From positions 77,210 through 141,209 of the forward strand of contig CAZDOJ010000001.1 of assembly GCA_964507055.1 (NCBI GenBank): 64,000 bases of DNA, read 5' to 3'. The translations under genes were made by a program, and so were the position numbers. Positions within the stretch are counted from its first letter, which is position 1. Every line of letters starts with the position of its first letter. Of the stretch, positions 1 through 58,332 are shown one piece after another. This DNA comes from an uncultured Gammaproteobacteria bacterium. Lineage in GTDB: Bacteria; Patescibacteriota; Microgenomatia; Levybacterales; UBA12049. The notes beneath the pieces were generated by a model. The model had not been told where the DNA came from and made no database searches. It worked only from the letters and a program-made list of their open reading frames with translations.

Positions 1-281
1 CACAGCTTGCGAATCTGACACCACAGCAACGTCGAGACTTATATAATCGAGCTGAAGAAGCTCGCCTCGCTGCGTTGGATCAAAAATATACATTACTCGA
101 AAATGGGGTTCCTTATGAAGAACTTCCCGAAGGAAGTCGAATGCGTGTCATTTTTTCAAGTCTTGAAGGGAATCGACCTCCAACACTTGATGAAACTACG
201 CAGCCACTTGATCAACAAGATGCAGGGATAGACTGGGCTGGCGAAAATGATCCGGATACTGGTCCTCGAAGGACTCTATAA
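1..281 (+). CDS. 5'-truncated member of the C-terminal-tag protein family; ends ...IDWAGENDPDTGPRRTL
   Basis: The frame is open from the window start. The C-terminal DWxGxNDxDxGPRRTL peptide is shared with 13 other ORFs. No homolog recognised. Confidence 0.6.
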   Translation, partial: QLANLTPQQRRDLYNRAEEARLAALDQKYTLLENGVPYEELPEGSRMRVIFSSLEGNRPPTLDETTQPLDQQDAGIDWAGENDPDTGPRRTL

Positions 282-292
282 GATTTTATACA

Positions 293-1411
293 ATGAAACA
301 AGAAAGAGCTCCACAGCGTTTGCCAAATAAAGTAACAGACTTCGTATTGGATAACATTCCGCAATACGAATTACTCAATGCACCCAATACTGAAATAGGT
401 AAGCAGAGATTTAATGAAGTATCTGCTGATGTTTTGTCCTATCGACATGTTGGCAAATCCATAGGCCATGGTGGATTTTTAGAAGTTCATCCACTTCGTG
501 GTGCAAAGGATGTGTTGGTAAAGAGGCTCCGTGCGGCAAATATGTATCTTCTTGGAAGAGGCAGTGAAGAGGTCGCATCTTTATGGAATAACCTTCAAGA
601 TGAACACGCAATGTTTGAACAATACTTTGGGCCAGAACATGTTCCGCATACAGAATTTGTTATCGTTCAAGGGACAAATTTCGGAGATTATCGTCGGTCC
701 GCTTTTCTTTCAGATGTGGAGTACGTGATGCTGCAGGAGACAGTGAAAGGTGTACCATATTCTGAGAACCCTCAAGATCTGCGGCAACTGAAACGGGCGG
801 CACAAGGTATCACTCCAAAAATGCAGGGGAAAGTTGATGCATTTGTAGAGAAGTATAGACGCATGGTCAAGGAAGAACGTAAAGCACCAGACGGAAGCCA
901 GGTGACATTTGATTTCGGAGGCGAACATGTCTGGTTAACTGATACTAATTTTCCTGAGGATTTTGATCGTGCAACAAGCAATAATCAATTTATACAAAGT
1001 TTTGTAACAGAGCCTGATTTCCAAATTGAGAATCCACAAGCACTCGTAAACTTTCTTACATCGACGGTCAATGAATTTTCTACACTGCATGGTCAATCAT
1101 GGGAAGATATTCGAAGTCATATTTCGTACAATTCAGCATTGCACGTTCAAGCTCGGGAGCGACTACGACGTATCGGTTTTGATGAAGCGAAGGTCCTGGA
1201 TTTTGATAACCTTATGAATGCTTTAGATTTTTTCCCTCCGGAGGGAGACAATCGATTCATTCGACATCTTAATGTATTAGGTATTACAAGCACAGCGACA
1301 TTATATGAAGATCAGCCAGACTTAGGTGCAGCAGAATCTTTAGAGACCTTGGATCAACAGGTTATTTGGGATCAAAATGGTGACGAGAATGGACCAAGAA
1401 GAACATTATAA
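293..1411 (+). CDS. hypothetical protein, C-terminal-tag family member (ends ...IWDQNGDENGPRRTL)
   Basis: 372-aa ORF with N-terminus MKQER. Conserved acidic C-terminal tag. Lies 11 nt after the upstream gene. Confidence 0.6.
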   Translation: MKQERAPQRLPNKVTDFVLDNIPQYELLNAPNTEIGKQRFNEVSADVLSYRHVGKSIGHGGFLEVHPLRGAKDVLVKRLRAANMYLLGRGSEEVASLWNNLQDEHAMFEQYFGPEHVPHTEFVIVQGTNFGDYRRSAFLSDVEYVMLQETVKGVPYSENPQDLRQLKRAAQGITPKMQGKVDAFVEKYRRMVKEERKAPDGSQVTFDFGGEHVWLTDTNFPEDFDRATSNNQFIQSFVTEPDFQIENPQALVNFLTSTVNEFSTLHGQSWEDIRSHISYNSALHVQARERLRRIGFDEAKVLDFDNLMNALDFFPPEGDNRFIRHLNVLGITSTATLYEDQPDLGAAESLETLDQQVIWDQNGDENGPRRTL

Positions 1412-1494
1412 TATGGAGATATGCTCAGGGTATAGCTTATAGATTTTTAAAAATGCTTTTGTTATAATGCTTACTTTATAGAGAGTAATTTATT

Positions 1495-4146
1495 ATGTCA
1501 AATCTAGAAAGAGATTTAGGAAAAGATATTCAAGCTTCACGTTCAACCCCAATTCGGGAAGGTGCTGATCACGGCACTCCTGATGGCGATAAAGGTATAA
1601 CGCCTTCAGCCATAGCTCCGCAAGGTACAGGTGCAGAATTTTCTGTATCATCACATCCTGATGCACAACTCGGTCAGTCTGCAGTTGAAGATATCGCTGT
1701 TGGGTCTAGTGCTGAGGATGAATCAGGAACAAGTAGTACAGCAAGCTCAGATAGTAGCCATGAAGGTACAACAGATGGATCAGCTCCTACAGGTCAAACC
1801 GATAGTAGTGGAGATTGGGCTGGTGCGGAAGGAATGGGAAGTGGTTCAGAAAGTGGTACTACTGGAAGTGAAAGTGGTTCTGCTGATAGTGATACTTCTC
1901 ATGCTGATGGAAGTGCTTCTGGAGCTGAAAGTGATAGCTCGCAATCTGATGGTGATTCATCACGTGCTGATGGAAGCTCCGATACATCTTATGAAAGTGG
2001 TTCACGAACCGATGGCGGAGATAGTACGACTGAAAACTCATCGAGTACACATAGTAGTGACGGAGGTTCATCAGATACTACGAACAGTGATACAAGCTCT
2101 AGAACAGATAATAGTGAAGGTTCTCATGAAGGCACTTCTTCGGATGATCGTAGTAATGAAAGTGGTTCAACTGACACAAACACAAATGCAACTTCTGAGA
2201 GTGATTCTAGTGGTGAGGCCCCAGTAAGTAGTGATAGCAATGCTGATTCCACTGGAACACAAGATTCAGGAGATAGTGGACAACCTTTTTCAGGGGAAAC
2301 AAGTGGTAGTACTGAAGGTACACAATCAGATGGAGACACATCTGACAGTGATAGAACACCAATTTCAAACACTGATTCTTCAGGGACCGAAACAGGAACT
2401 ACCGATCAACAAACTGGAGATACTACCGATACTGATTCCACTACAGATAATAACCCAACCGGAAATACAGATGGATCAGAATCAGATTCAAGTGTAGAAC
2501 TTGATATAGACAAAAGTGGAGGAGGGGTCCAAGTAGGTGATCCCGAGCCAAGAAATCCTAAAGTTGACGAGCCTGTTGTTGAACCAACTCTTCCAACAGA
2601 CGAGTCTGATGAGCCAACGACAGACATTCCTCCAGCGACTGGAAAACCTGTTACAGATCCCGTCCCTCCGGCTGGACCAACTGTCACTGATACAGATGAC
2701 AACGAACCTCCAACGACTATTACTGATCTAGGTGAAAAAGATCCCACAGCTACATCTGATGGAGACAAAGATGGGGTCCTGGTAGGAACTGATGGAACAG
2801 AAAGTATAACAATTGTGGATATAGATCCTGATGTTACTGTGAAACCAGGTTCAGTTGAAGATCCACAAGACGGAGTTATTACTGGTGATCCTATTATGGA
2901 TACAACTAGTCCAAAAACTGATACCACAGATGGTGACGGAACCGTTGAACCACAGGGGATAACAGACCCTGGTGTTACAGATGGTACGGATGGGGATAAA
3001 ATTGACCCAACTGCCGATCCTGTCCAACCTAGTGTGATCACCACAGATGGTGATGGAACCTTAGAGCCACAAGGAACAGTAGATACTAGTGATCCAGCTG
3101 CTGATCCTAAAGATCCAAGTGGTCCTGATGATTCAGGAGAAGGAAAAGATACTCCCAATGAAGAGGAAAATGCGAGTGGTCCAGAAGCAGGAGCACCAGA
3201 AATGACCGAGGAAGAAAAAGAGTTTGATGAATTAGTAACACAGGTTTCTAAAGAAATGCTCGGAACACTTAATGGGAAAGAACCAACAGAGGCAGAAATA
3301 GAAACCATGAAAGAAGGAGTTGCACGAGATATAGATATCGCTCATCAGCATTGGATGTCAGAATATTCTCGGTTAACTCAGCACTACGCTCACGTCTATA
3401 CAATTGAAGAGGCTCAAAGAATGGCTCGAGCAGATGTTATGGCGATGGCTAGTTACGTTTCAGGGATTGCTGTTAATGATATCAGCCAAGTCAGTGTCGC
3501 TATGTTTTTGGGTGAGGTTAATGCACCAAAAGCTATGAGAGTGAGAGCACAAAATTATTCTGAACGAAATCCATTTGCAGTGCAATTAGGTGATATTGAT
3601 GGAGGGATGTTTGGATTAGGTAGATATAGAGAAGAAAGTGATCGTATGGAAGGTTCCCACCCAGATATAGCACGTGGTGCTAGTCGTATAAAGCAAGCAG
3701 AACAGCGAGAAGCAGGTATTAATAAAGCAGTAGAACATCGTTTGCGAACAGATGGTATAAGTGATTTCTCAGAAAGTCGATACACTCCAGATATCGATGG
3801 TGTTGGAGATAATGACGATATGCCAGTAATGCCCAAAGAAAGTATCCAACAAGAGCAATCGAGTGGATATGTCGAGGCTCATGGGGCAGTGGATATTGTA
3901 GAACCAGCCGAAGTTGTTATGCCAAATAATGAACAAACAGATTCTAATAGAGAAGTTGCTACGACTGAAGCTAAGACTGTCGTTGTTGATGGAATAGTCT
4001 ATGAAATTCCTGCTCCTGAACCAATGCCTGCTCTTGACGATCATGAAGCAGTGCCGTTAAAAGTGCTTGATCAATTGGTTGATTGGACCGGAAAGACAGA
4101 TGTAGGTGCGGATATTAATCAGGGCTCACCTAAGAAGACACTCTAA
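1495..4146 (+). CDS. 883-aa polyanionic low-complexity protein with a globular C-terminal region; tag family member (ends ...VDWTGKTDVGADINQGSPKKTL)
   Basis: About 300 aa of S/T/D/G/E-rich sequence, then Pro/Asp/Thr-rich repeats (TDGDGT[VL]EPQG occurs twice), then an ordinary-composition ~300-aa C-terminal part. TATAAT at 1464-1469. N-terminus MSNLER. Confidence 0.6.
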   Translation: MSNLERDLGKDIQASRSTPIREGADHGTPDGDKGITPSAIAPQGTGAEFSVSSHPDAQLGQSAVEDIAVGSSAEDESGTSSTASSDSSHEGTTDGSAPTGQTDSSGDWAGAEGMGSGSESGTTGSESGSADSDTSHADGSASGAESDSSQSDGDSSRADGSSDTSYESGSRTDGGDSTTENSSSTHSSDGGSSDTTNSDTSSRTDNSEGSHEGTSSDDRSNESGSTDTNTNATSESDSSGEAPVSSDSNADSTGTQDSGDSGQPFSGETSGSTEGTQSDGDTSDSDRTPISNTDSSGTETGTTDQQTGDTTDTDSTTDNNPTGNTDGSESDSSVELDIDKSGGGVQVGDPEPRNPKVDEPVVEPTLPTDESDEPTTDIPPATGKPVTDPVPPAGPTVTDTDDNEPPTTITDLGEKDPTATSDGDKDGVLVGTDGTESITIVDIDPDVTVKPGSVEDPQDGVITGDPIMDTTSPKTDTTDGDGTVEPQGITDPGVTDGTDGDKIDPTADPVQPSVITTDGDGTLEPQGTVDTSDPAADPKDPSGPDDSGEGKDTPNEEENASGPEAGAPEMTEEEKEFDELVTQVSKEMLGTLNGKEPTEAEIETMKEGVARDIDIAHQHWMSEYSRLTQHYAHVYTIEEAQRMARADVMAMASYVSGIAVNDISQVSVAMFLGEVNAPKAMRVRAQNYSERNPFAVQLGDIDGGMFGLGRYREESDRMEGSHPDIARGASRIKQAEQREAGINKAVEHRLRTDGISDFSESRYTPDIDGVGDNDDMPVMPKESIQQEQSSGYVEAHGAVDIVEPAEVVMPNNEQTDSNREVATTEAKTVVVDGIVYEIPAPEPMPALDDHEAVPLKVLDQLVDWTGKTDVGADINQGSPKKTL

Positions 4147-4164
4147 ATTACAAAGGCGTGTACT

Positions 4165-4806
4165 ATGAGTAACGAACGAAAACCAGGACCTATCCGATAC
4201 AACGAACTGGATAGACAATATCCTGGAGAAGCCTATGTAGCAAAACCGCATGAACCTAACAGTGTCCACGCGATAAAAACAGTTTATCTTGGTGCTGGCG
4301 ATGCCTCAGATCCAGCTCTTATCCGATACATTGAAGTTCGTGCATCAGATTACCCAAGACCTTCAGATGTATTTGGTTTACCTAGTTTATTCAAGCCAGC
4401 AGTCGAAGAACGAAGGCTGCAATATACGGTAAAGCTTGTCTCAGTTTCCTATAGTGAGGATCCAACTTTTGAAGACCCTGAAAAAAAGCTTCCGAATTAT
4501 AGTGAAAGACATCAACTTCTCGTAAAGCCTTTTTTTACAGGAACTGCAAAAGGAGCTTTGGATAAAGGACATGAAATTTATACACAGCAAGTCATCAAAG
4601 AGCACAATCAACGAGAGAATATAGAAGAAGCTACTGCTAGTCCTAATCTGGGAATTGAATCCATTTCTGAAGATGAAATTAAAACAATTGTTCCTGAGGA
4701 AGTTCAAACAGCCCCTCCAATACTCAATCAAGAAATCCCTTTAGTAGATTTAGATAAAGATATAGATTGGGATGATGGTGCAGACGGACCAGAACATACA
4801 CTCTAA
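4165..4806 (+). CDS. hypothetical protein, tag family member (ends ...IDWDDGADGPEHTL)
   Basis: 213-aa ORF with N-terminus MSNERKP. Shares the C-terminal motif. Starts 19 nt after the upstream gene. Confidence 0.55.
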   Translation: MSNERKPGPIRYNELDRQYPGEAYVAKPHEPNSVHAIKTVYLGAGDASDPALIRYIEVRASDYPRPSDVFGLPSLFKPAVEERRLQYTVKLVSVSYSEDPTFEDPEKKLPNYSERHQLLVKPFFTGTAKGALDKGHEIYTQQVIKEHNQRENIEEATASPNLGIESISEDEIKTIVPEEVQTAPPILNQEIPLVDLDKDIDWDDGADGPEHTL

Positions 4807-4846
4807 TTGTCTTGACTTCTAAAAATGTAAGATCTATACTCCCAAA

Positions 4847-7516
4847 ATGTTAGAGGCAAGTGTACGAGCATACCTAGAAATAAGAAGACTTAAGTTGGAA
4901 GATCGCGAACGATATGGTAATAAAACACGCGAAATGCCAAGAAGAGTACCCATTAATCCGCGTTTATATCATAGGCAATATCAAGTAGATGGTGTAAATA
5001 CTATTACCCAGCTCGCAGATGCTTTATATCATGACAAATATGACTTTCCACAAGCAGGCAGAAAGTTATCTCTTATCGATACAGCAGCAGCAATAGCGGA
5101 TAGTACTAAAGGTACATCCAATATGTGGAAACCTTCAGAAGATGGTAAACCTCAAACCAGTCAACGAGAAGATGATAGCTTACAAGTACATTTTACGGCA
5201 AAAATGTTTCGAGATGCTCTGCGAGTTGTCAGAAAGTTTGGTGCCTCTCAGCAAAATATGGTCTCACCAATTGCTCTTAATGACTTGAATACCTTCCTTA
5301 ATGAACAAATAGATATGCGTGACGAAATATTTGCAGGTATGTATGAAAGCCGTGCACCACAGATAGAACATGTTCACGGTCAAGATCAAGTAATTTCTGA
5401 GGAAGTGAGAAGAGAAGCTCATGTAAAAGGATTACATCGTATTTGGCCATTCAGAGTTAAGCGTGATGACGGAGATCTCCTTATTAGTTATAGTCTCGAT
5501 GGTCTGGTTGGTTGGAAACATGATCGCACTAAAGACGAGGATCCTGACGGATCTGCTCATATTGTCACAATTCGTAAGCAAAAAGGTCAACACTGGCCTC
5601 GTGTGTATGGAAAGAATCCCTCTGCAAAAACTGAAGCACAAGGAAAAGGTCCGATTCTTATTGATGGCAGGGGAAGTGTTGTAGATCAGGTAGATGTAGA
5701 TGGTTGTCAAAAAGTGGAGATCCGTAATATGGACATCCATACAGTATTTGTTGCAGCTGGAGAGGTAGATATTGAAGGTGCAAATATCGATACTATTCGT
5801 ACCGGCAAAAATGGTGTAGCAACAATTGCAGACAGCTCTGTACAAAGTATGTTTGCGTTGTGGGAGGGATCTACATTAAATTGTATGAACACTCCTACAG
5901 GAAAAGTTAAATTGGCTTCAGGAGATTTACTATCAGATGAAAGTGATTTTGGAGTCATTATAGCGACGAGTGGTGCTCATATAAGCGTGAATAAGGGAGA
6001 TGTTGTTAGTTTAGCTGTTGATACACAGACAAAAGTGTCAATTAATGGAGCGGTTGATTATGTTTGTGCTAGCGATGAAGGAACAGAGGTTGGCATTAGT
6101 GACGAATGTGGTTCAATAACTTTTCAAGACAAAGCTACAGGTTGGATTAAAAAAGAGGACGGTACAGATTGGATCTATGTCTCATCAGCTGAGGCACCAT
6201 TTGCTAGGAGTTCGTCTCATGTAAATACATTAGCTGAAGATCCCTTGCAAATTAGTGACGAAATACCTGATCTTGAGTTTGTACGCAGTCAAAAACGTCT
6301 TGGAGCTGTGCGGAAGGTTCTCTCAAATATTCAAGGAATGGTAGTACCAGCTTCTGTTCTTGAAGCGTTAGCGTTCCTTGCTTCTAATAAAGAAGATGAA
6401 CTCACTGAGTTAGCTCCTGGGGCATTACCAGAAATTCGTGCGGAAGGGGTTGATCAAATCGCTGATATAAGAGATTTCGAGTTGCGTGCAGTTCTGCGTA
6501 CACTGAAAGAATATGAACAAGATCCATCATTACCATCAATTGATGGTAATGCATTAAGAAGTTTTATTTCTGAACAGCGAGTATATCAGCTAGAAAAATT
6601 AAGTCGTCTTGCTGAAGGGATGGCTCCTGAAAAGATTGAACATACAGCTGAAGCTATAAAAGAAGCCACACGTGAGGCAAAAGCAAAAGCACGACAAGGT
6701 GGATACAAAGAAAGAAGGTCGCAAAATGCTGACTATAGTTATCACAACAATACAATCGATACTATACATGGTTTTGATCCACCCGTACGTAGTGACAATT
6801 TAACTGTTTTTTATGGTGATCTTACTGTAAGCCATAGTGTGAAAGACGATCCGCCAATTATCTATTCAGTTCAGAAAGACGGAATAAGGAGATATATTAT
6901 TGATGGACAAGGTCGTACATTGCCGGAAATAAGTATTTCAGGTAAAAAAGAGCATGTGATTATCGAGCTTCAATCAATTGATGTGGGTACATTAACTGTA
7001 CGAAGTAAAAATCGTGTTGTCGCAACAGAGGCAAATATTGATACTGTAACGATCCACGAAGGAGGGATGCTTATCGCTAATGATGGAACTATTGGTAATA
7101 TCTCAGCCAAAGGTCCAAGTGCTCGTGTCGAGATCAAAAATACTGACGTCAGTAGTGTAAGTCTTACAGATCAAGCAAGTTTTGTAGGGAGAGGTAGTGA
7201 TATTGGTACACTTCATATCTCTAAAACGGCTCAGGGACAACATGAAGGGGATATTGCTCTTGCGGTGCTTCATGATGGTGGAACCTTGGAGCTTGATGGT
7301 GAGGTCGGACGAATTCTTGGAAAGCAAGATAACGATCCAATGGATCACCTATCAGGCGAGTATGGATTTATTGATCCTAAAAAGCGTATATACCAACCTA
7401 CCTCTAAAGAAACTGCAGAAATGCCAGACCTTTCAGGTCCTACATTTTCGGAAGAGACGACATTAGTAGATTGGACATGGGATGATGACGGACCAGATGT
7501 AAATAAAACTTTATAA
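4847..7516 (+). CDS. 889-aa protein with a repeated beta-helix-like segment; tag family member (ends ...VDWTWDDDGPDVNKTL)
   Basis: Consensus promoter TTGACT(4812-4817)-17-TATACT(4835-4840) with the ATG 7 nt downstream, so leaderless. Two similar segments rich in alternating V/I/T/G/N/D (VDVDGCQKVEIRNMDIHT... and IDVGTLTVRSKNRVVATEANIDTVTIHEGG...). Confidence 0.6.
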   Translation: MLEASVRAYLEIRRLKLEDRERYGNKTREMPRRVPINPRLYHRQYQVDGVNTITQLADALYHDKYDFPQAGRKLSLIDTAAAIADSTKGTSNMWKPSEDGKPQTSQREDDSLQVHFTAKMFRDALRVVRKFGASQQNMVSPIALNDLNTFLNEQIDMRDEIFAGMYESRAPQIEHVHGQDQVISEEVRREAHVKGLHRIWPFRVKRDDGDLLISYSLDGLVGWKHDRTKDEDPDGSAHIVTIRKQKGQHWPRVYGKNPSAKTEAQGKGPILIDGRGSVVDQVDVDGCQKVEIRNMDIHTVFVAAGEVDIEGANIDTIRTGKNGVATIADSSVQSMFALWEGSTLNCMNTPTGKVKLASGDLLSDESDFGVIIATSGAHISVNKGDVVSLAVDTQTKVSINGAVDYVCASDEGTEVGISDECGSITFQDKATGWIKKEDGTDWIYVSSAEAPFARSSSHVNTLAEDPLQISDEIPDLEFVRSQKRLGAVRKVLSNIQGMVVPASVLEALAFLASNKEDELTELAPGALPEIRAEGVDQIADIRDFELRAVLRTLKEYEQDPSLPSIDGNALRSFISEQRVYQLEKLSRLAEGMAPEKIEHTAEAIKEATREAKAKARQGGYKERRSQNADYSYHNNTIDTIHGFDPPVRSDNLTVFYGDLTVSHSVKDDPPIIYSVQKDGIRRYIIDGQGRTLPEISISGKKEHVIIELQSIDVGTLTVRSKNRVVATEANIDTVTIHEGGMLIANDGTIGNISAKGPSARVEIKNTDVSSVSLTDQASFVGRGSDIGTLHISKTAQGQHEGDIALAVLHDGGTLELDGEVGRILGKQDNDPMDHLSGEYGFIDPKKRIYQPTSKETAEMPDLSGPTFSEETTLVDWTWDDDGPDVNKTL

Positions 7517-7521
7517 CTTAT

Positions 7522-8598
7522 ATGACTGAAAGAATTCCCCAAAACGCTCGAGAAAAAGGTAAACCATTTACAATGGTATTATTACAGCATGACAATCGGT
7601 CATTGCATGAACTTGATGCTTTTAAAAATGGATTAGAACAAGCATTATATACGCACCCTCAAGGAAAAATTGTGGCATTTGTTGAATCTCCTAGTGTGCC
7701 TGTGGGTATTAGTTCAGCCGTTGAAGCAGCTCATGCTGCAAGATATACGTTTGATGAATCTTATCGAAAGGCTATTTATGATTACCATTTCCCTCCAGGC
7801 TCTATACAAAGGAGAAATCGCCAGAGGCAACATGAACCTAATGGACATAGTGATCTGACTATCCCGCATGGCTTCTACCGTAGCACATTTGAAACTTTAG
7901 ATGATCTTGATGCTCGGTATAAAGATCCCGAAGGCAAAAGCAGGATTACACTTGTATTAGAAGAGCAATCACCTTATATTCGCCAGCGTGCTATTGATTT
8001 GACGCAAATTGATTTAGCTTCTCATACAGATCCGATTGGAGCACGTAAACAATGGATACAAGAATTCGCGATTTATGAAAATATGCGTACGAATCCCAAT
8101 ATTCAACGCATTACCGATGCGATGGAAGATGAAGATGTGGTGGCTGGTATCGGGTGGATGGGGAAGCTACACACAAAAGTCGCTCAGGGTTTAAGGAAAG
8201 CGGAAGGCGTTGATCAATCAAAGCGTCTTGATGTGACGACAGTTTTTCCAGTTAGAAATGGTGCCAAAGTTTACTTTGATCCCGTCACCAAATTAGTGCG
8301 AGATCAAATGTTTTTTCCTGATCGAGAGATTTCATCCTCAGAGGTCGCTGAAGCATATACGATGAATATGGAAATAGAAGCACAGATCAGAAGAGATAGA
8401 CAAGGTAGGGTTATTCGAAATGGAAGAATTGAGCGATATACTTCTGAAGAACTAGGCCAAAAAGAACAACATTATTTGGGTAAGGCTTATGCATCACGGA
8501 TATCAGCACCTCGGCATTCTGATCCACCACTATCGACTTATACGATTGATTGGGCTGGGACCAATGATCCTTCTGAAGATCCAAAGAAAACCCTCTAA
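7522..8598 (+). CDS. hypothetical protein, tag family member (ends ...IDWAGTNDPSEDPKKTL); paralog of the next gene
   Basis: N-terminus MTER. Internal motif DVVAGIGWMGKLHTKVAQG matches DVIGSVGFLGAVHTGVSQD in the next ORF. Starts 5 nt after the upstream stop. Confidence 0.6.
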   Translation: MTERIPQNAREKGKPFTMVLLQHDNRSLHELDAFKNGLEQALYTHPQGKIVAFVESPSVPVGISSAVEAAHAARYTFDESYRKAIYDYHFPPGSIQRRNRQRQHEPNGHSDLTIPHGFYRSTFETLDDLDARYKDPEGKSRITLVLEEQSPYIRQRAIDLTQIDLASHTDPIGARKQWIQEFAIYENMRTNPNIQRITDAMEDEDVVAGIGWMGKLHTKVAQGLRKAEGVDQSKRLDVTTVFPVRNGAKVYFDPVTKLVRDQMFFPDREISSSEVAEAYTMNMEIEAQIRRDRQGRVIRNGRIERYTSEELGQKEQHYLGKAYASRISAPRHSDPPLSTYTIDWAGTNDPSEDPKKTL

Positions 8599-8709
8599 TT
8601 AGGCCTATAGTTGCAATTGTGCTTTAAAAAGTATATAATCAAAACCAAATAGGACAACCACTGCTAGAGAAGTTGTCCATGAGTAACATCCGTGTTACAA
8701 TACACCATT

Positions 8710-9837
8710 ATGTCAGAGCGATTTAAGCCATTACAACAAAGAGAAACAGAACCGACAGGTCCTGGCCGCAAGCCTGTGGACTTTGTTTTTGTTTCTCATA
8801 ATGCAAACGTAGAAGGTGATCTCGCCCAACTTAGCCAATGGAGTAATCGAATTCGTGAAATGCTTCAAAGTAAATCGACTGGTAAGGTTGTTGTTTTTAT
8901 GGAAGATGAAGGAGCTTCACCTGAGTATTCTCAAGGTGTACGAGAGTATACAGCTATGGGTTTAAATCCTGCAGAGGCAAAGCTCAATGCCCAAATGGAT
9001 CTTATCCCAGATGAACAGTTAGATGATCCTGAAGTTCAGGGTCTTATTGAAGAATCAGAAAGAGATCTTACTACTGGATTTGAAGGTACGGCAAACGCTT
9101 TGCTCGCAAATATTATGCAGGAATTCCCTGGAAGAGTTGATCTCATTCCTGAAGCACAGCCCGAACATATTCGAAATGAACCAATAGATATCGCAACAAT
9201 GTACAATAGCATATTAACAGCTGATCTCCCCGAACAGACAAAGGTTGAGTTGTTTAGAATCCAAAACAAAAAGTTTGCGGAATTGCAAAAGGAGAGAGAA
9301 GGAAATATCTACAATACAATTTCCTTTGCTCTTTTAGACGATGACGTTATTGGTAGTGTTGGATTTTTGGGAGCCGTACATACTGGTGTGAGTCAAGACT
9401 TTGCGACAACCAAAGATGAGAATGGAAATAAAAAGTTTACCTCAGCTCGAGCTTTCCCTGAACAACAAGGGTCAAAGTATAATTTCTCACCCTTCATGAG
9501 TCTTCTTCGAAAACAAATGCGTGACTTAGATGTTGAATTAACTGATGACGAGATTGGTAGTGCGTTCATTATTGAAAGAGATATTCGCGAAAAACAAGAA
9601 GTCTCTGATGCTTTAGGTTTTGACGAAACACGTCAGGCTCAACTTGCTGATGCATACGCTACTTTTCAAGCTATGGGAGATTTTGGAGATTTTACGATTG
9701 GTGATGCTGTGGATCAAGCAAGTACAGGCCATCCTCAATTGGATGCGACAACAGATAGGCCTCTTGAAGAAGCAAATGGTGATGTAGACTGGACAGGCAA
9801 TAATGACCCAGACGAAGGACCCAATCGCACCCTCTAA
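8710..9837 (+). CDS. hypothetical protein, tag family member (ends ...VDWTGNNDPDEGPNRTL); paralog of 7522-8598
   Basis: The longest ORF starts at a GTG at 8692. The ATG at 8710 gives MSERFKP, matching the family's M-[TS]-E-R N-terminus. Promoter TTGCAA(8611-8616)-17-TATAAT(8634-8639) lies upstream. Confidence 0.55.
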   Translation: MSERFKPLQQRETEPTGPGRKPVDFVFVSHNANVEGDLAQLSQWSNRIREMLQSKSTGKVVVFMEDEGASPEYSQGVREYTAMGLNPAEAKLNAQMDLIPDEQLDDPEVQGLIEESERDLTTGFEGTANALLANIMQEFPGRVDLIPEAQPEHIRNEPIDIATMYNSILTADLPEQTKVELFRIQNKKFAELQKEREGNIYNTISFALLDDDVIGSVGFLGAVHTGVSQDFATTKDENGNKKFTSARAFPEQQGSKYNFSPFMSLLRKQMRDLDVELTDDEIGSAFIIERDIREKQEVSDALGFDETRQAQLADAYATFQAMGDFGDFTIGDAVDQASTGHPQLDATTDRPLEEANGDVDWTGNNDPDEGPNRTL

Positions 9838-9859
9838 CTACTAGGAATACATATTCATT

Positions 9860-10525
9860 ATGACAGAACGATCTCAATATATTGGTGGAAGAAGTGGAGG
9901 TATTACTACCTCTATTTTTACAGCTGAATCACGTAGCAAAGGTCAATATACAATTCAAGGGAAGTCTGGAAGATCATTGGATGTTTTTGTTACCAATTCT
10001 GTCGTCCATATCTCATCTGCTGAAGATAGGAAAGTCCTTTTTGCTGCTCATGCAATTAACAATACCTATAATCTCAATATCCGTAATATTGAAGCAAATG
10101 GGCAAAGGCATCCTGATTTGTACCCTGGTCAGTTAGCAAAATATAGCTATGAATTTTTAACAGAGAACGGTATTCCCATGGATGTTATGAATGGGAAATG
10201 GGTTCCGTCGTATGACGGAAAACCTAGTGTGAACTACGAAGCCTATGCTTCAAATCTCTCGGGTACGATAAATCCTACGGTTGAAGACAAAGCAAAAGCA
10301 GCCCAAAATACCTGGACCGGAAGATTAGCAGCATCACTCGGTTATACCGATATTCATCAAATCCTTGAAGGTGAAGGTCAAAGTGGAGAAATGGTTATTG
10401 TCCAATTTATCAAACCTGCACCACTTACTTTGGATGTTGAACTTCCGACATTATTAGAAGCAAATAAAGAGATCGACTGGTCAGGTAAATCCGATATAGT
10501 GGCCTCTTATACAAGATCTCTCTAA
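9860..10525 (+). CDS. hypothetical ~220-aa protein, tag family member; paralog A of a 3-member subfamily
   Basis: MTERSQYIGGRSGGITTSIF...NGQRHPDLYPGQL...KAKAAQNTWTGRLAASLGYT. C-terminal ...IDWSGKSDIVASYTRSL is a degenerate tag. Confidence 0.6.
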   Translation: MTERSQYIGGRSGGITTSIFTAESRSKGQYTIQGKSGRSLDVFVTNSVVHISSAEDRKVLFAAHAINNTYNLNIRNIEANGQRHPDLYPGQLAKYSYEFLTENGIPMDVMNGKWVPSYDGKPSVNYEAYASNLSGTINPTVEDKAKAAQNTWTGRLAASLGYTDIHQILEGEGQSGEMVIVQFIKPAPLTLDVELPTLLEANKEIDWSGKSDIVASYTRSL

Positions 10526-10532
10526 TACGACT

Positions 10533-11204
10533 ATGAAAGAATATCAACACATAGGAGGAAAGCACGGCGGTATAGATACTTCAATCTTTGATCTCCGTTT
10601 GCGTGATAGAGAATACACCGCACGAGCAAGTTCTGGGAGTCGGGTTACTTGTAAAGTAACTGAGAATCAAGTCTGTATCGAATCTGTTGAGGATAAGAAG
10701 ATAGCTTTTGTCGCTACAAATATAGACGGTAATCTTATTTTATATGTGCGTAACACAGATGATCAAGGAAATCGTCACCCTGATATTTACCCAGTACAAT
10801 TGATAGAACATAGTTTTGAATACTTTAATTCACAGGGTAAACCTGTGCAATCAATACAAGGTAGTTGGCTTCCACCAGTTCATGGAGAAAGTAGTGTCAA
10901 TCACACAGAATACACGACACGGTTGGAAGGTCTTACTGATGTGACAGCTGAAGATAGGGCAAAGGCTGCCCAAAATACATGGACAGGAAAAGTTGCAGCA
11001 GCACTTGGGTTTACTGAAGCTAGTGTTATAGAAAGTGAAGGCCTAAATGATACTATTGGTTATGTTGAAGTACAGTTTAGAAAGCCTGAAGAAAAAGTTG
11101 TTGAACATGAAATATCTTCTGAAGATGTCTCTCTGGCTGCTTTAGATGCCACTATTGATTGGGAGGGTGAAGATGCATTACAAGCTCGGTCTAAAGTCTT
11201 ATAA
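10533..11204 (+). CDS. hypothetical ~220-aa protein, tag family member; paralog B
   Basis: MKEYQHIGGKHGGIDTSIF...QGNRHPDIYPVQL...RAKAAQNTWTGKVAAALGFT. C-terminal ...IDWEGEDALQARSKVL is a degenerate tag. Confidence 0.6.
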   Translation: MKEYQHIGGKHGGIDTSIFDLRLRDREYTARASSGSRVTCKVTENQVCIESVEDKKIAFVATNIDGNLILYVRNTDDQGNRHPDIYPVQLIEHSFEYFNSQGKPVQSIQGSWLPPVHGESSVNHTEYTTRLEGLTDVTAEDRAKAAQNTWTGKVAAALGFTEASVIESEGLNDTIGYVEVQFRKPEEKVVEHEISSEDVSLAALDATIDWEGEDALQARSKVL

Positions 11205-11222
11205 CTTATACTAACCCATAGT

Positions 11223-11251
11223 TTGACACATGAGATTTACTGCTGTATAAT
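11223..11251 (+). promoter_or_regulatory. sigma-70 consensus promoter TTGACA-17-TATAAT
   Basis: Exact consensus hexamers with a 17-nt spacer. The ATG at 11261 is 10 nt downstream. Confidence 0.6.
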
Positions 11252-11260
11252 TCCTTTTTT

Positions 11261-12514
11261 ATGACTGAACGAAGACCATATACTGGATTCCAAATGAGGC
11301 CAGACATGATGCACGTATCACAAGATATGGGTGCAGAATATTTCATGCGTGCGGTTGCTACTCCTATGCTTTCAGCTATGCTTCGGGGTCAGGAACAACA
11401 GTTTGGTCCGCAACGAAGTGCAGAAGCTACTCTTGCTGCAGTTAATCTTTCAAAATACGTTCAAAATGAAGGTATCAAAAATGTAGTTCTCTTGGACAGA
11501 AGTGCTCGAACAGCGGCTACTGCTTTGCGTGCGGCATGGGATGATGAGCATCCAGGTGAAAAAAAGCCTTTTAACACATTCTTTATAAATCCTCGTGGAT
11601 TTGCGACAGAAGAAGACCTTTCCGCGGTTGATCCAGAATTTAGAATAGATAGAAGAGAAAGAGAATACCTTGTTGCCATGAATAATCGAGATTTTGTGCA
11701 ACGCCATCCTTCTGGAAGAACAAGTGAACAAATACAAACTGATTTAGCAGAGACGTTCCCATTGCTGGTAGCTGCAAAAGATGAACCTACGTTAATTTTT
11801 GACGTTTGCATACATCAAGGAACATCTGCCAAACCTGTACTTCGTGAATTTAAAGATAGTGGATTTAGTGATTTGCGATTCGGAGTAGCTGGAGATTATG
11901 CAAATCATTCAGGAATTGTACCTGATTTTATTGGTTTACCAGGATTTAGAGAGGATACTTGTATTGTTTTCGGATCGGATTATTCAATGGTAAAACCTTT
12001 TGGAGCAATGACAAGTGACCGAACCGAAAATCCTGATGACCTCAGAGATGGAGCGAGACTTCGAAATAAATTACGAGAGGTAATCAAAGAGACACGTCCT
12101 ATACTTGAAGATTTGGATCGAAGAGAAAAAGTAGTAGCCAAACCATCACCAAAGACAGGAATGGCTTTAGAATTTTTAGCAGATACTACAGGAAGAAATG
12201 GATCAATGGAAGTAAGTGGTGTTTATCGAGAGTTATTGGATTTGGGATTTACTCATATTAGCGATGCGTCTCAAGCTATTAAAGATGGATCTCTATCACA
12301 AGATGTGCTGGGTCGATTAGCAAATACAGTTGATTCTCAAACAGGCGTTGTTCTCTTTCCAGCTTTACGTGATGCTGCAGTCATTGCTATTGAAGAATCA
12401 CAACAGGAAATCGTTACTGATCTATCTTTAGAGCCTTCATTGGCCGAGTCAAATGCTGCAATCGATTGGGACAGTTCCGACGATCCTGATGCCGGTCCAA
12501 GAAGGTCTCTTTAA
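11261..12514 (+). CDS. hypothetical 417-aa protein, tag family member (ends ...IDWDSSDDPDAGPRRSL)
   Basis: Perfect consensus promoter TTGACA(11223-11228)-17-TATAAT(11246-11251) with the ATG 10 nt downstream. N-terminus MTERRPY. Confidence 0.6.
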   Translation: MTERRPYTGFQMRPDMMHVSQDMGAEYFMRAVATPMLSAMLRGQEQQFGPQRSAEATLAAVNLSKYVQNEGIKNVVLLDRSARTAATALRAAWDDEHPGEKKPFNTFFINPRGFATEEDLSAVDPEFRIDRREREYLVAMNNRDFVQRHPSGRTSEQIQTDLAETFPLLVAAKDEPTLIFDVCIHQGTSAKPVLREFKDSGFSDLRFGVAGDYANHSGIVPDFIGLPGFREDTCIVFGSDYSMVKPFGAMTSDRTENPDDLRDGARLRNKLREVIKETRPILEDLDRREKVVAKPSPKTGMALEFLADTTGRNGSMEVSGVYRELLDLGFTHISDASQAIKDGSLSQDVLGRLANTVDSQTGVVLFPALRDAAVIAIEESQQEIVTDLSLEPSLAESNAAIDWDSSDDPDAGPRRSL

Positions 12515-12516
12515 CT

Positions 12517-13245
12517 ATGAAAGAAAGGACTCAATTTATAGGCGGTAAGTCTGGAGGTATTGACGCCGCTGTCTTCAAATCAAGTAAAAACCCTGAATTT
12601 ACTCCGACATGGGGAAAATCTGGTGATTTATTTAACTATCGAACTACACCTGAGAGCATTCACCTATTACATGATGGTGATAATGAAACAGGTTTCTCCG
12701 CTGAGGTTAAAAATGGTGTCCTCAATTTTTGGGTAGATACGAGAGATGAAATGGGAAATCGTCATCCCGATTTATATGCAAAAAAACTCTTTCTGCGTAG
12801 TATACAGTATTTTAAGGATCAGGGAACTGAAGTCCGTACTATTGAAGGTGTTTGGCTAAATTCTGCAATGGGGCTAAGGCGAGATAATCATGATCAGTAC
12901 TATAGATTTCTTAATGGTTTAGAAAAGCCAACAGAGCAAATAACTGACGAAGACAGAAAAAAAGCTGCATTGTCTACTTGGACAGGACACATTGCGACAG
13001 AGTTGGGTTATTCAGAGGTCGCAAGTGTTGTCGAAGAAGTAGAATTTATGAGAGAAGATACCTATGTTGATATTAAAGCACGGTTTGTAAAACCTCAAGA
13101 GAAAAAGCAACAAATTGATTTAGAAGAGGGCATCGCAAGTGATCTGCTGCCTCAATTAGATGACCAATCAATAGGCGACAATAATACAATAATTGATTGG
13201 TCAGGGCAAAATGATTCCGATATCGATCCTCGCAAGACGCTATAG
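12517..13245 (+). CDS. hypothetical 242-aa protein, tag family member; paralog C
   Basis: MKERTQFIGGKSGGIDAAVF...MGNRHPDLYAKKL...RKKAALSTWTGHIATELGYS. Ends ...IDWSGQNDSDIDPRKTL. Confidence 0.6.
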   Translation: MKERTQFIGGKSGGIDAAVFKSSKNPEFTPTWGKSGDLFNYRTTPESIHLLHDGDNETGFSAEVKNGVLNFWVDTRDEMGNRHPDLYAKKLFLRSIQYFKDQGTEVRTIEGVWLNSAMGLRRDNHDQYYRFLNGLEKPTEQITDEDRKKAALSTWTGHIATELGYSEVASVVEEVEFMREDTYVDIKARFVKPQEKKQQIDLEEGIASDLLPQLDDQSIGDNNTIIDWSGQNDSDIDPRKTL

Positions 13246-13286
13246 CTTCGCTTGATTTATCTTATAGTATTTAGTATAATTTCTGA

Positions 13287-14084
13287 ATGGTCGAAAAGGG
13301 AGTAAGAGAAAAAATAAAATTGACGCCAGAACAACGAGAACTCAGAGATATTGCACGGTTTTCTACAATGTTTTCGCAGGGAAGACTCGATTTGCAAAAG
13401 AAATATTTTTATTGGCTTGGGGGAAATGGGTATTTAGATACACTACAATTACCTCAACGGCCACCGGCTTTTATTCAGGAGATGCCTATTCCAGTAAAAC
13501 ATTTTCCAATTCCAGAATCTCAACGTAAAGAATTTAATGAGGTTATGTATCATCATCTCCATAAAATAAAAACACAAACTCCTAATGAAGTCCCTGCAGC
13601 AGAACGGTATACAGACTTGCTTGGTGATATCGCAAAAGATTTAATTTTAAAAGATGATGACTATCAAATAAAGAAAAGGCATGCACGAACTGAAGATCAT
13701 ATGTCTGAGCCGGATGATGCAAATGATCCTCATGCAAGCTTTGTCCGCAAATATATCCTTCTTGGGAAGAAGACTGGAAGTGAGGCGTTTGACCAGCTTT
13801 TTAAAGAAGTTCGTGAAGAAATAATGCCTGATATCGTGGCGGTCCATCAAAAAGTGGACAAATTAACAATTCGGCAAAGCCAGTTATCCAGAATGATCCG
13901 TGGTTGGGAAGATACTCATCCAGGAGAAATATTTGTTCATCCAAATATATTATCACCTGAAGTTGTCGAGCATGAAGTATTTGTCGCAACTTCAGATGAT
14001 GAGCAATTATTAGCATTTGTAGATACATCAATAGATTGGAGTGGTAGCAATGATCTTGATGATGGTCCTCGAAGATCCTTATAA
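13287..14084 (+). CDS. hypothetical 265-aa protein, tag family member (ends ...IDWSGSNDLDDGPRRSL)
   Basis: Promoter TTGATT(13252-13257)-17-TATAAT(13275-13280) with the ATG 7 nt downstream, so leaderless. Confidence 0.6.
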   Translation: MVEKGVREKIKLTPEQRELRDIARFSTMFSQGRLDLQKKYFYWLGGNGYLDTLQLPQRPPAFIQEMPIPVKHFPIPESQRKEFNEVMYHHLHKIKTQTPNEVPAAERYTDLLGDIAKDLILKDDDYQIKKRHARTEDHMSEPDDANDPHASFVRKYILLGKKTGSEAFDQLFKEVREEIMPDIVAVHQKVDKLTIRQSQLSRMIRGWEDTHPGEIFVHPNILSPEVVEHEVFVATSDDEQLLAFVDTSIDWSGSNDLDDGPRRSL

Positions 14085-14145
14085 TGCCTGCTTGAAGCTC
14101 AGCTTATAGTGATATATAATGGCACACACATAATAGATAGTAACG

Positions 14146-15834
14146 ATGACTGAAAGAGCAAAACCAGCAGGTACATCTCATGATAACGCCCGAAGATTTT
14201 TTAGAGAGATGGGCGAGCTTGCAAGAACTGAACCAGATCGTGCACAGCGAAGAGCATTTTTTCGCGACCTAAAACAAGAACCTGAATATCAGCAGGCTCA
14301 AAATATACTTACCTCATCCGTACCCACGGTAGTAGAAAACTTCCCTCAAGTTGAGAAAACTATTCAGGAAGTTGAACCGAATGAGCCACTTTCTGACGCA
14401 GTGATGGGTGGGCTTTTAGCAGCTGTTGGAAATCATGAAGGGAAAGCTTTACTATTAGCTTCAATGCAGCCTGGAATTGGATATAGTTCTACGGATATGC
14501 AAAAAATGACATATGTTGGAGGGAAGAGGTTTTGGAAAGGAAAAACAAATGCTTTTTCTTGGTCTGTAAAGTCTTTTGCACCTATCGGATTGGTCACACG
14601 AGAAATAGTTGATCCTGAGAGAGGACTTGTAGGATATGAATTAACTGAAAGAGGTAATACATTGGGTGTAAGTCTTGCTGGACATGTCCTTGCTTTTTCT
14701 GAAAGACATCCAGAAACTTCCTTAGAAAGAATGCTTAGTGTGACAACATCTTCCAAAAGTCTCGATGCTCATTCTGAGGGTAATCTAGAAGAAGATAATA
14801 AAAGGCGTGCACCGCTTGCTCGCTATAGAATTTTTTCTGAGCTATTGGCAGGTGACTTGCCAGCAAGAAAGGAAGATCTTTTGCAAGGTATAGCTCAAGC
14901 TTATCCTGGAGAGCCAAAAGATAGCATGATGAATCGTTTGACACATCATTTAGATAATCTTTCACGGCATGGAATTATCTCTTACGAAACCACAACCCCA
15001 GATACTCCATTCGCGTTATTTATCCCAGCAAAGAATCGTCCAGAAGAACCTCCACAACCTGATCAGCATAATAAAACACTTATGCAGAGAATAGATGGCA
15101 TTATGCAGCAAAGCGAAACACAAGTATCGCCCAAGGATATATTTAATGCATTAGTCGAACAATATCCAAATTATGCTGAACGTAGTGTTGCTGGTTTGAT
15201 GAATGAAATATCCAGGACTGTACAGCAGTTAGTTCGAAGTGGTCATGTAACACAGATCGGGGAATTTAGTAAAGGAAATCAATCGAGGATAACTTTGACT
15301 GATGATCAAAGAGCTTTGATAAAAGACTTTGTGACAGTTCTCACTGCTTTTCAATCACAAGATCCAGAAATTCTTGCTGCAGGGCACAGAGAAGCTCGAT
15401 CTATTGTCTCTAATCAGGATCGCTTTGGTGCATTAATGATCAAATCAAAAGAGGCTTCCGGTCGTTCAGGTGATAGAAGTAGTCAGCAAACACAAGATGA
15501 GATCGTTGATTACTGCCGTGCACATCCAGAGTGTACAAATAGAGACCTACAAGCTCATTTTCAAGAAGGAGGACGAGTATATACGATAGGCACTATCCGC
15601 GACTTTACTCAATTATTGCGATCAAAAGGTGTACTTAGTTCAGAAGTACGGGGAAAAATATCATATTTTACTGCGAGCGAGGCTCCATTAGACGAAGAGA
15701 CACCTGACGAGAGACCAGTTTCAATAACTATATTTGAAAGTAGAGTCCCCAATGATGAACCTTCACTTGAAGAAATGAATGAAGGTGTAGATTGGGATGG
15801 TACGGATGGTCCTCAGATGGGTAGAACACTCTAA
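14146..15834 (+). CDS. hypothetical 562-aa protein, tag family member (ends ...VDWDGTDGPQMGRTL)
   Basis: Promoter TTGAAG(14092-14097)-17-TATAAT(14115-14120). N-terminus MTERAKP. Last gene of the contiguous array. Confidence 0.6.
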   Translation: MTERAKPAGTSHDNARRFFREMGELARTEPDRAQRRAFFRDLKQEPEYQQAQNILTSSVPTVVENFPQVEKTIQEVEPNEPLSDAVMGGLLAAVGNHEGKALLLASMQPGIGYSSTDMQKMTYVGGKRFWKGKTNAFSWSVKSFAPIGLVTREIVDPERGLVGYELTERGNTLGVSLAGHVLAFSERHPETSLERMLSVTTSSKSLDAHSEGNLEEDNKRRAPLARYRIFSELLAGDLPARKEDLLQGIAQAYPGEPKDSMMNRLTHHLDNLSRHGIISYETTTPDTPFALFIPAKNRPEEPPQPDQHNKTLMQRIDGIMQQSETQVSPKDIFNALVEQYPNYAERSVAGLMNEISRTVQQLVRSGHVTQIGEFSKGNQSRITLTDDQRALIKDFVTVLTAFQSQDPEILAAGHREARSIVSNQDRFGALMIKSKEASGRSGDRSSQQTQDEIVDYCRAHPECTNRDLQAHFQEGGRVYTIGTIRDFTQLLRSKGVLSSEVRGKISYFTASEAPLDEETPDERPVSITIFESRVPNDEPSLEEMNEGVDWDGTDGPQMGRTL

Positions 15835-15879
15835 TCATCCTTTTGACTTTCCCACGCCTCAACAGCTATACTTAACCCA

Positions 15880-25130: not shown

Positions 25131-25650
25131 ATGATTTTATAAAGCTTTGCCGAGCCCTGTAGAGAAGTGATTCTGTAGCTTTATCTGATAGGTTCATCGC
25201 TAATGCAATTGCTTTGACAGACAACTCATCTTCATAATGCATTCGCAATATTTGTTGATAATGTGTTGCAATACTTAAAAATGCAGCCTCAATCCGGTCT
25301 CTAATTTTATTCTTTTCCATTTGAAATTCAGGTTGGCTTATTTCGTTTGCAATAATCGAAAGGTATGGCATCTGAGAAAAAAGGAAAGACTTAATCTTAC
25401 GTTTTCGATAAAAGTCAGCAGTTTTATTTAAAGCAATCTTATACAACCATGCTTGCACATTGGTTTCTTTTTGCAAAGTCGGCAAAGCATCTACTGCTTC
25501 AAGAAAAACATCATTTAATATCTCCTGTGCATCTTCTCCTTGCGGTAATTTATTTTTTAAAAACCGTAAGATTCTTGGGGAGTAGAAGTTATAAAAGGCG
25601 ACAACTGCCTGCTCATCTCCCTGCAGCACTTTGGTAATTAAGGAGCTCAT
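25117..25650 (-). CDS. RNA polymerase sigma factor, ECF (sigma-70 family)
   Basis: Region 2 (FLEAVDAL...AWLYKIALNKTADFYRKR) and region 4 (LSVKAIALAMNLSDKATESLLYRARQ). Confidence 0.75.
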   Translation of the reverse strand: MSSLITKVLQGDEQAVVAFYNFYSPRILRFLKNKLPQGEDAQEILNDVFLEAVDALPTLQKETNVQAWLYKIALNKTADFYRKRKIKSFLFSQMPYLSIIANEISQPEFQMEKNKIRDRIEAAFLSIATHYQQILRMHYEDELSVKAIALAMNLSDKATESLLYRARQSFIKSYERT

Positions 25651-25714
25651 GCAGACATTATATGTAAAATCGAATGATTTGGCAAAAAATTACGACTTAT
25701 TACATAGTCGTTCT

Positions 25715-26491: not shown

Positions 26492-26493
26492 TC

Positions 26494-27162: not shown

Positions 27163-27170
27163 GTGATCTT

Positions 27171-58131: not shown

Positions 58132-58332
58132 ATATTCACCTCCTTTCATATATGCAAATTATTAATTGTTATGTTACTTAACAATCAATAAAATCCATTA
58201 TGCGGGACGTATGTAAGTATCTAGTTAACATAGTTAATATTGTCGTAAGAGAGTTGATTTAGTGCCTATTTTTTCAGAGAATATTAAGCTATATGTGTAA
58301 AAGATATAAATTTGTTATAATCGGTAGACATT

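Follow-up and report, generated by a model that had tools for sequence, protein, structure and literature searches.

Why should a long series of adjacent genes, whose products differ widely in size and type, all end in the same peptide? In this work, we address this question for an array, or island, of genes located at the beginning of a 64 kb stretch of bacterial DNA (contig CAZDOJ010000001.1), which close, directly before the stop codon, with the consensus [IV]DWxG..D..GP[RK][RK][TS]L. Throughout the text "the window" indicates the full 64 kb, gene coordinates are window positions, and genes or proteins ending in the shared C-terminal tail are called tagged. A previous sequence-only reading had reported 13 tandem, same-strand open reading frames (ORFs) sharing this peptide, and one more copy at 38770-40041: the ORFs bear this out, and every peptide or DNA string quoted in its support is present. 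The interpretation towards which we lean, with moderate confidence, is that the tail would act as a lineage-specific recognition signal for a type IV coupling protein (T4CP), borne by a repertoire of effectors.

The conserved tail

Within the window, the array lies on the plus strand and includes 12 complete tagged ORFs (293-15834), preceded by the 3' end of a 13th one (1-281); beyond these and the copy at 38770-40041, no further tail was found in any frame of the 64 kb. A degenerate DNA pattern, designed on the commonest tail spacing, produced 6 matches in the window and none in 100 shuffles. Similarly, a hidden Markov model (HMM) of 36 positions, derived from the alignment of the 14 window tails, assigned 21 to 57 bits to tagged ORFs, including those upstream of the window, which were not part of the training set, and at most 2.7 bits to every other ORF. 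Shuffles and HMM scores exclude a chance origin of the motif.

The peptide had been described as 16-20 residues long, an estimate which proved too short: conservation extends over about 30-35 residues, with a P.L...[EQ]P.L box N-terminal to the [IV]DW core. The complete layout is thus a P.L/EP.L box, an [IV]DWxG core with an acidic stretch, and a basic end, [RK][RK][TS]L-COOH, and in all 27 tagged proteins, upstream ones included, the tail ends at the stop codon. When ten equally spaced tails were compared, codons at identical residues coincided in 42% of the pairs, versus 48% expected from the codon usage of the genome: synonymous sites are randomised, and selection must therefore act on the peptide, rather than the similarity reflecting recent DNA duplication, as had been proposed from the sequence.

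The tail is net acidic, the last 20 residues carrying a net charge between -1 and -7 in 24 of 26 tails, with about 1.7 basic residues among the last five. Neither signal peptides nor transmembrane helices were detected in tagged proteins (the highest Kyte-Doolittle mean over 19 residues is 1.57), in agreement with the initial observation. AlphaFold2 (AF2) models were evaluated for two proteins: the predicted local distance difference test score (pLDDT) is below 50 for residues 198-242 of the 242-aa protein and 318-375 of the 375-aa protein, so that linker and tail are predicted to be disordered. No known domain or sorting-signal model in Pfam or NCBIfam matches the tail, PADLOC found no defence system in the island, and neither a signal nor an effector set of this type was found in literature searches. 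The earlier suggestions of a peptide different from described sorting signals, and of a hydrophilic, non-cleavable-looking recognition peptide on heterogeneous cargo, are thus both supported.

Extension of the array upstream of the window

Reading was extended up to about 25 kb before window position 1, and the upstream end of the array lies beyond this limit. Thirteen more genes ending with the tail or a close variant were found there, coding for proteins of at least 392, 371, 347, 344, 390, 397, 614, 750, 676, 905, 816, 398 and 505 aa. The array thus covers about 55 kb and includes 26 or more tagged genes, 27 with the copy at 38770. The same organism is present in several public assemblies (among them those of SRR14271332-361), with a longest contig of 1.32 Mb, and its genome is about 1.3 Mb.

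Only two genes of the array lie on the opposite strand. One, embedded among tagged genes but pointing away from the array, lies 1.4-5.2 kb upstream of window position 1 and codes for a 1250-aa protein matching PF02534 with 101.8 bits (cut-off 20.1), PF12696 with 39 (22) and PF10412 with 35.2 (20.5). It features a Walker A motif, GPTGQGKS, at residue 692 and a Walker B motif, ALDE, at residue 988; its top NCBIfam match is the VirD4-like CD1115 family, of Gram-positive type, and with IncP TraG it shares 24% identity over residues 698-1135. Judged by these matches, the protein is a type IV coupling protein. No related locus was found when it was used as a single query against the GTDB species genomes, a protein word-index search with its full sequence returned only itself, and sequence searches of the PDB gave no match for it, for two family profiles or for two single cargo proteins. 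The T4CP and four tagged proteins, the five that were checked, are singleton clusters at 90% identity.

The other opposite-strand gene, coding for the 505-aa protein (13755-15272 of the upstream locus, L010), starts one base past the stop codon of the coupling protein gene, within the same operon, and is the only tagged gene co-oriented with it. Its tail is the variant VDFAGEDEPDQDLPKTL, in which a Phe replaces the otherwise invariant Trp; rather than being cargo, the 505-aa protein might serve as an adaptor or chaperone. The T4CP itself ends with ...KGKDDGPPKLGK (13700-13753 of the same locus), resembling the distal half of the tail (DDGPRRSL): this likeness could be due to chance or mark a pseudo-substrate.

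Codon composition gives no support to a recent horizontal origin of the island, its GC content at third codon positions (GC3) being 0.25, close to the 0.29 of the rest of the window. A phage origin was also considered and rejected, as alignments of two cargo families, those of the helix-turn-helix (HTH) and 358-aa-like proteins described below, have no relatives in viral contigs.

Heterogeneity of the cargo

Tagged proteins had been described as otherwise dissimilar. This holds in that the tail sits on non-homologous bodies with different folds, among them a sigma-70 factor, but paralogue families are also found within the set: the 221-, 223- and 242-aa proteins, the 358-, 375- and 527-aa ones, and the 562-aa protein with its upstream relatives of 676 and 905 aa. 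The sigma-70 family member is the 614-aa protein (TIGR02937, 85.5 bits; cut-off 42.9), while the 562/676/905-aa family shows several weak HTH matches. For the 242-aa protein, the core of the AF2 model (1-195) gives weak matches to GNAT-like folds. The 375-aa model is poor (mean pLDDT 58.6) and features an alpha/beta core with non-specific fold matches, which include EreA/ChaN-like proteins and, among them, the type III effector HopBA1. The 358-like family, composed of ten paralogues, shares a conserved H...E...E...GxxGxxH pattern, which we presume to be reminiscent of the EreA/ChaN/Tiki superfamily. Several orphans complete the set.

No small immunity-like genes lie between the cargo genes in the island. 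Because it includes a sigma-70 factor and many multi-HTH and enzyme-like proteins, the cargo looks like a set of effectors for host reprogramming, rather than of toxin/immunity pairs.

A second recurrent feature is found at the opposite end of the proteins, as a start of the type M-x(0-3)-E-[RKQ] (MTER, MKER, MSER, MSNER and similar) is common in the island. Of 27 island proteins 18 have it, versus 1 of the 48 remaining ORFs of the window (Fisher p about 8e-10), as do 8 of 14 proteins in the island of the second organism described below; the window genes concerned start at 293, 1495, 4165, 7522, 8710, 9860, 11261, 12517, 14146 and 38770. As codons vary, this N-terminal motif looks conserved at the protein level. 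The T4CP itself starts with MAAER, which argues against the motif being simply a second secretion signal.

Distribution of the tail and a second island

A profile search with the tail, over 1.84 billion representatives of about 15 billion proteins, selected 16 proteins at E <=0.001, all from this organism; fifteen tagged proteins are each their own representative at 50% identity clustering. The tail DNA pattern found no match in the viral contigs of IMG/VR. It produced 9 matches in the 185,579 species genomes of GTDB and 12 in JGI metagenomes, none of them credible: most contain in-frame stops, and the rest lack the acidic core and the GP turn. No match was obtained by tblastn of the 417-aa and 676-aa cargo proteins against 72,556 plasmids. 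On the basis of these searches, the tail motif as written is private to one lineage. The concern that the motif might not be enriched beyond a paralogous expansion, and might lack a partner gene, did not materialize, given its occurrence on non-homologous folds and the availability of the T4CP as a candidate partner; despite this, the exact motif is confined, in the profile search, to this one organism.

A word-index search with the HTH family returned, besides the query, one homologue, P0018, 47% identical to the 676-aa protein. It belongs to a different organism (contig SRR30654423_18304, 90.7 kb), where its gene is one of at least 15 arrayed on the same strand (locus L033, of which 22.8 kb were read). 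Four island families have homologues there: the 265-aa protein (36% and 33% identity), the 398-aa one (37%), the HTH family (26-47%) and the 358-like family (22-28%). A uniform tail is found also in this array, in all 13 complete genes of at least 100 aa, but a different one, EPx[IV]G-x5-6-SIA[DEQ]xE[AE]-x10-14-K[TSK]K, to which the window-type HMM assigns no more than 2.2 bits. The L033 homologues of the 265-aa protein carry the L033 tail and not that of the window, and alignments between homologues from the two islands end before the tails.

When the last 30 residues are compared, unrelated proteins of the window organism are 38% identical, those within L033 34%, and only 13% identity is left between the two organisms, whose homologous bodies are 29-48% identical; paralogues of the 358-like and HTH families are less conserved in their bodies than in their tails. 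If one co-evolving receptor reads the peptide, tails should be uniform within each genome and differ between genomes, with randomised synonymous sites, as observed; common descent or gene conversion would not be expected to give this combination. The two tails nevertheless share an outline, made of an EPxΦ box, a Φ-[D/A] core with an acidic stretch and a basic end, [KR][TS]x-COOH, and may be diverged versions of one ancestral module, as far as their sequences can tell. One tail-bearing L033 protein (1613-4381 of that locus) contains a Sigma70_r4 domain (25.4 bits; cut-off 24.1); with a sigma-70 factor tagged in the window island as well, a tagged sigma-like factor is therefore conserved in both islands.

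Comparison with known signals

The tail does not resemble PEP-CTERM, LPXTG, GlyGly-CTERM or T9SS CTD signals, as tagged proteins have no hydrophobic segment at either end and no corresponding match in Pfam or NCBIfam. Gene content was evaluated over about 140 kb of the genome, and no shell family was matched by Pfam among the genes called there, as would be expected for encapsulin or microcompartment loading. Features typical of type IV secretion system (T4SS) substrates are instead found: a signal at the extreme C-terminus, disordered where modelled, no Sec signal, and a T4CP gene within the array. Of the analogies originally listed (type I and type IV secretion signals, encapsulin loading peptides, degrons), the type IV one is thus favoured by the VirD4/TraG-type gene, and the others are not selected by the context. 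The further proposal of a dedicated, undescribed targeting system stands for the signal and the cargo set, which are new, but less so for the machine, which is probably of a known kind.

Most similar to the tail is the XVIPCD found in the X-Tfe effectors of Xanthomonadales, likewise a conserved C-terminal module on otherwise unrelated proteins; its substrates are selected by the all-alpha domain of VirD4 and aimed at other bacteria, also a likeness if, as we suppose, tagged proteins are exported (PMC8740702). The XVIPCD is, however, a partly folded domain of about 120 residues with a Gln-rich tail, found in several proteobacterial orders and accompanied by paired immunity proteins (PMC8740702). 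In contrast, the tail described here has a conserved region of about 30 residues, is disordered where modelled, lacks a Gln-rich tail and any family model match, occurs in one lineage without paired small genes, and is associated with a T4CP devoid of transmembrane segments in a probably monoderm bacterium with a small genome.

Agrobacterium VirB/D4 and Bartonella Bep signals are also C-terminal, unstructured, non-cleaved, provided with terminal basic residues and read by a T4CP (cf. bioRxiv 10.1101/2024.03.25.586700); these tails are net positive, with a loose consensus, and Bartonella adds a BID domain. The present tail differs from them in being net acidic, not Arg-rich, and in having a sharply conserved, Trp-containing core.

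Signals of the Dot/Icm (type IVB) system contain a Glu-rich "E-block", are compositional, with no strict motif, and are read by the DotL/DotM/IcmSW complex. An acidic stretch a few residues from the C-terminus, which Dot/Icm signals place on hundreds of unrelated effectors, is shared with our tail, but the motif found here is strict, and the T4CP is of the VirD4/CD1115 type.

Patescibacterial T4SSs are of a monoderm (MPF-FATA-like) type, as would apply here, and their T4CP usually lies far from virB4; they are relaxase-free and presumed to export proteins to the host (PMC10633639, PMC12102498, PMC12857230). Neither substrates nor signals have been described for them; should the organism be a patescibacterium endowed with channel genes, both would come from this island.

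A proposed secretion signal and its alternatives

The interpretation we favour can be outlined as follows. Tagged proteins, in which Sec signals are absent, would be made in the cytoplasm; their disordered tail would dock on the T4CP, which would pass them to a type IV secretion channel whose genes would lie in another part of the genome. Delivery out of the cell would follow, most plausibly into the bacterial host of a small-genome, probably patescibacterial, epibiont: small genome, gene content and monoderm-type T4CP suggest a member of the Patescibacteria. The tail would be uniform within a genome, as all substrates must fit one receptor, and would drift together with the receptor between lineages.

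Several observations point in this direction: tagged genes surround the T4CP gene, the tail is strictly C-terminal and disordered where modelled, the cargo is heterogeneous, selection acts on the peptide, and tails have evolved in a concerted way in two genomes. The literature on patescibacterial T4SSs is in line with it: these systems are essential for epibiotic growth, have neither a relaxase nor known substrates, and are "predicted to mediate DNA or protein delivery", while VirD4-like T4CPs are abundant in patescibacterial genomes and mostly encoded away from virB4 (PMC10633639, PMC12102498, PMC12857230). As many as 5,713 patescibacterial T4CP loci have been reported (PMC12102498). A C-terminal module binding VirD4 is, moreover, the established logic of the X-Tfe effectors (PMC8740702).

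Other observations weigh against it. No VirB4, VirB6, VirB8 or pilin gene was found in the 140 kb, nor was any other secretion gene, or any phage, integrase or relaxase gene, annotated there. The T4CP is atypical: no N-terminal transmembrane anchor is predicted (the highest 19-residue Kyte-Doolittle mean is 1.34), and its first 650 residues form a hydrophilic extension with no family match. The linkage between tail and T4CP comes from one genome, and no T4CP was found in the 22.8 kb read of the second island. The net acidic tail departs from the arginine-rich Agrobacterium signal, and the placement of the organism among Patescibacteria is based on gene content. Finally, in the one genetically studied patescibacterium, Southlakia epibionticum, the T4SS is essential but the T4CP homologue is not, and exaptation of patescibacterial T4CPs has been suggested (PMC12102498).

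An alternative is that the tail acts inside the cell, with no export, and mediates docking or degradation through an intracellular partner, which might be a protease or unfoldase, a scaffold, or a soluble T4CP-like ATPase exapted as a cytoplasmic hub. A coupling protein without a membrane anchor, the proposed exaptation and the lack of a secretion channel nearby would all fit, and short C-terminal peptides are generally known to serve also as degrons and cargo-loading peptides. We regard this explanation as unlikely: known C-terminal degrons are short and non-polar, while a hydrophilic module of about 30 residues is found here on 27 proteins with different folds; the island contains no gene for a protease, a shell or a scaffold; and it is hard to explain what a 1.3-Mb genome would gain from about 55 kb of orphan genes whose products are simply degraded or sequestered. 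More improbable still is that the island is an integrated conjugative or mobilisable element, whose tagged proteins would be recognized by the T4CP in the same way, but co-transferred with DNA into conspecifics, as a "conjutome". T4CPs are indeed primarily conjugation proteins, many cargo proteins bind DNA (HTH arrays, sigma factor), and translocation of more than 12 plasmid-encoded proteins by F-like plasmids has been reported (PMC11288057). However, no relaxase, integrase, replication or T4SS channel gene was found in the approximately 78 kb of island and flanks annotated by Pfam, the GC3 value carries no sign of recent foreign origin, the two tagged proteins searched have no counterpart among plasmids, and one tagged gene is found 23 kb away, in a housekeeping context.

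That the tail has no function of its own, and either descends from a single ancestral gene or was propagated by gene conversion or as a 3' DNA element (for instance a recombination site or a terminator), can be given very little credit. Several tagged genes are paralogous and in tandem, as this explanation would predict, but the tail is carried by non-homologous bodies, orthologous bodies in the second organism bear a different and equally uniform tail, and the tail is better conserved than the bodies of paralogues. Randomised synonymous sites exclude recent conversion and constraint at the DNA level, and on this evidence both conversion and a 3' element were ruled out as sources of the tail. 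Codon, homologue and tail-versus-body comparisons have largely refuted this explanation.

Tagged genes of the window

All tagged genes of the window lie on the plus strand, and each tail is quoted up to the stop codon. The 3' end of the 527-aa gene, which starts about 1.3 kb upstream of the window, occupies positions 1-281, with tail IDWAGENDPDTGPRRTL at 228-281 (57 bits with the HMM). The 372-aa protein (293-1411; tail VIWDQNGDENGPRRTL at 1361-1411) has no family match. It is followed by the 883-aa one (1495-4146; tail VDWTGKTDVGADINQGSPKKTL at 4078-4146), which contains a long low-complexity region of about 500 residues, rich in S, T, D, G and E; antisense or alternate-frame ORFs within this gene (1631-2227 and 2406-3308) are most likely by-products of such composition. 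The 213-aa protein (4165-4806) features a short tail variant, IDWDDGADGPEHTL, at 4762-4806, and the 889-aa one (4847-7516) ends with VDWTWDDDGPDVNKTL at 7466-7516.

Two members of the 358-like family come next, the 358-aa protein itself (7522-8598; tail 8545-8598) and its 375-aa paralogue (8710-9837, or from an alternative start at 8692; tail 9784-9837). The 221/223/242 family includes the 221-aa protein (9860-10525; tail 10472-10525), the 223-aa one (10533-11204; tail IDWEGEDALQARSKVL at 11154-11204) and, beyond the 417-aa protein (11261-12514; tail IDWDSSDDPDAGPRRSL at 12461-12514), the 242-aa one (12517-13245; tail 13192-13245). The 265-aa protein (13287-14084; tail 14031-14084), which has two homologues in the second organism's island, precedes the last gene of the array, coding for the 562-aa multi-HTH protein (14146-15834; tail VDWDGTDGPQMGRTL at 15787-15834). 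The isolated copy, 23 kb off the array among housekeeping genes, codes for a 423-aa protein (38770-40041) with tail VDWSGDSEPDPRKKTL at 39991-40041.

Strong sigma-70-like promoters were recognized at 4812-4840, 8673-8701, 11223-11251, 13252-13280, 14092-14120 and 15843-15872. The one at 11223-11251 is a perfect TTGACA-17-TATAAT site, ending 9 nt before the ATG of the 417-aa gene. In general, these promoters end 6-10 nt before the ATG, with no Shine-Dalgarno sequence, an arrangement found also at other genes of the window (e.g. 19020, 58333 and 59103). Judging from the sequence, many array genes may have promoters of their own and be transcribed as leaderless mRNAs.

Other features of the window

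The rest of the window is occupied by housekeeping genes, including dnaX, recR, cysS, prs, uppS, a split transketolase and those for PBP1A, FBA and an LTD protein; no tRNA or Rfam match was found in the window. One gene (28692-29681) codes for a cytidylyltransferase-like domain of the PPAT type fused to DUF359 (PF04019), which we take to be the archaeal-type dephospho-CoA kinase, while a gene of the amino-acid-kinase family adjoins those for Nudix and UppS proteins at 25631-28393. These two findings would fit archaeal-like steps of coenzyme A and isoprenoid synthesis in a reduced genome. On the minus strand, positions 57634-58149 code for a 171-aa protein without a Pfam match, in which a hydrophobic segment is found at the N-terminus and the sequence, rich in W, D, N and K (DWKWNDDKKDWDRNDW...), is highly repetitive.

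Implications

If the tail is indeed read by the T4CP, it would represent a short, sharply conserved and lineage-private T4SS signal, and tagged proteins would be the first candidate substrate set for this bacterial group. Thousands of orphan T4CP genes are found in patescibacterial genomes without an assigned role, for which the island offers a testable candidate: it supplies a peptide for reporter fusion, an adjoining candidate receptor, and 27 candidate effectors, one of them a sigma factor and many of them DNA-binding. The difference between the tails of the two organisms suggests, in addition, a route to the secretion substrates of uncultured bacteria which uses sequence only, in cases where the signal itself is not conserved.

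A broader view, which we propose only tentatively, is that small-genome epibionts carry "private-code" effector islands, in which dozens of fast-evolving proteins would share a tail peculiar to the lineage, co-evolving with a soluble VirD4-like ATPase, and would be injected, a sigma factor and many multi-HTH regulators among them, to take over transcription in the bacterial host. If this were true, the essential, functionally unexplained T4SS of Patescibacteria would gain from the island its first substrates and its first secretion signal, and uniformity of tails within a genome, in the vicinity of T4CP genes, would become a general rule to find effectors in uncultured lineages.

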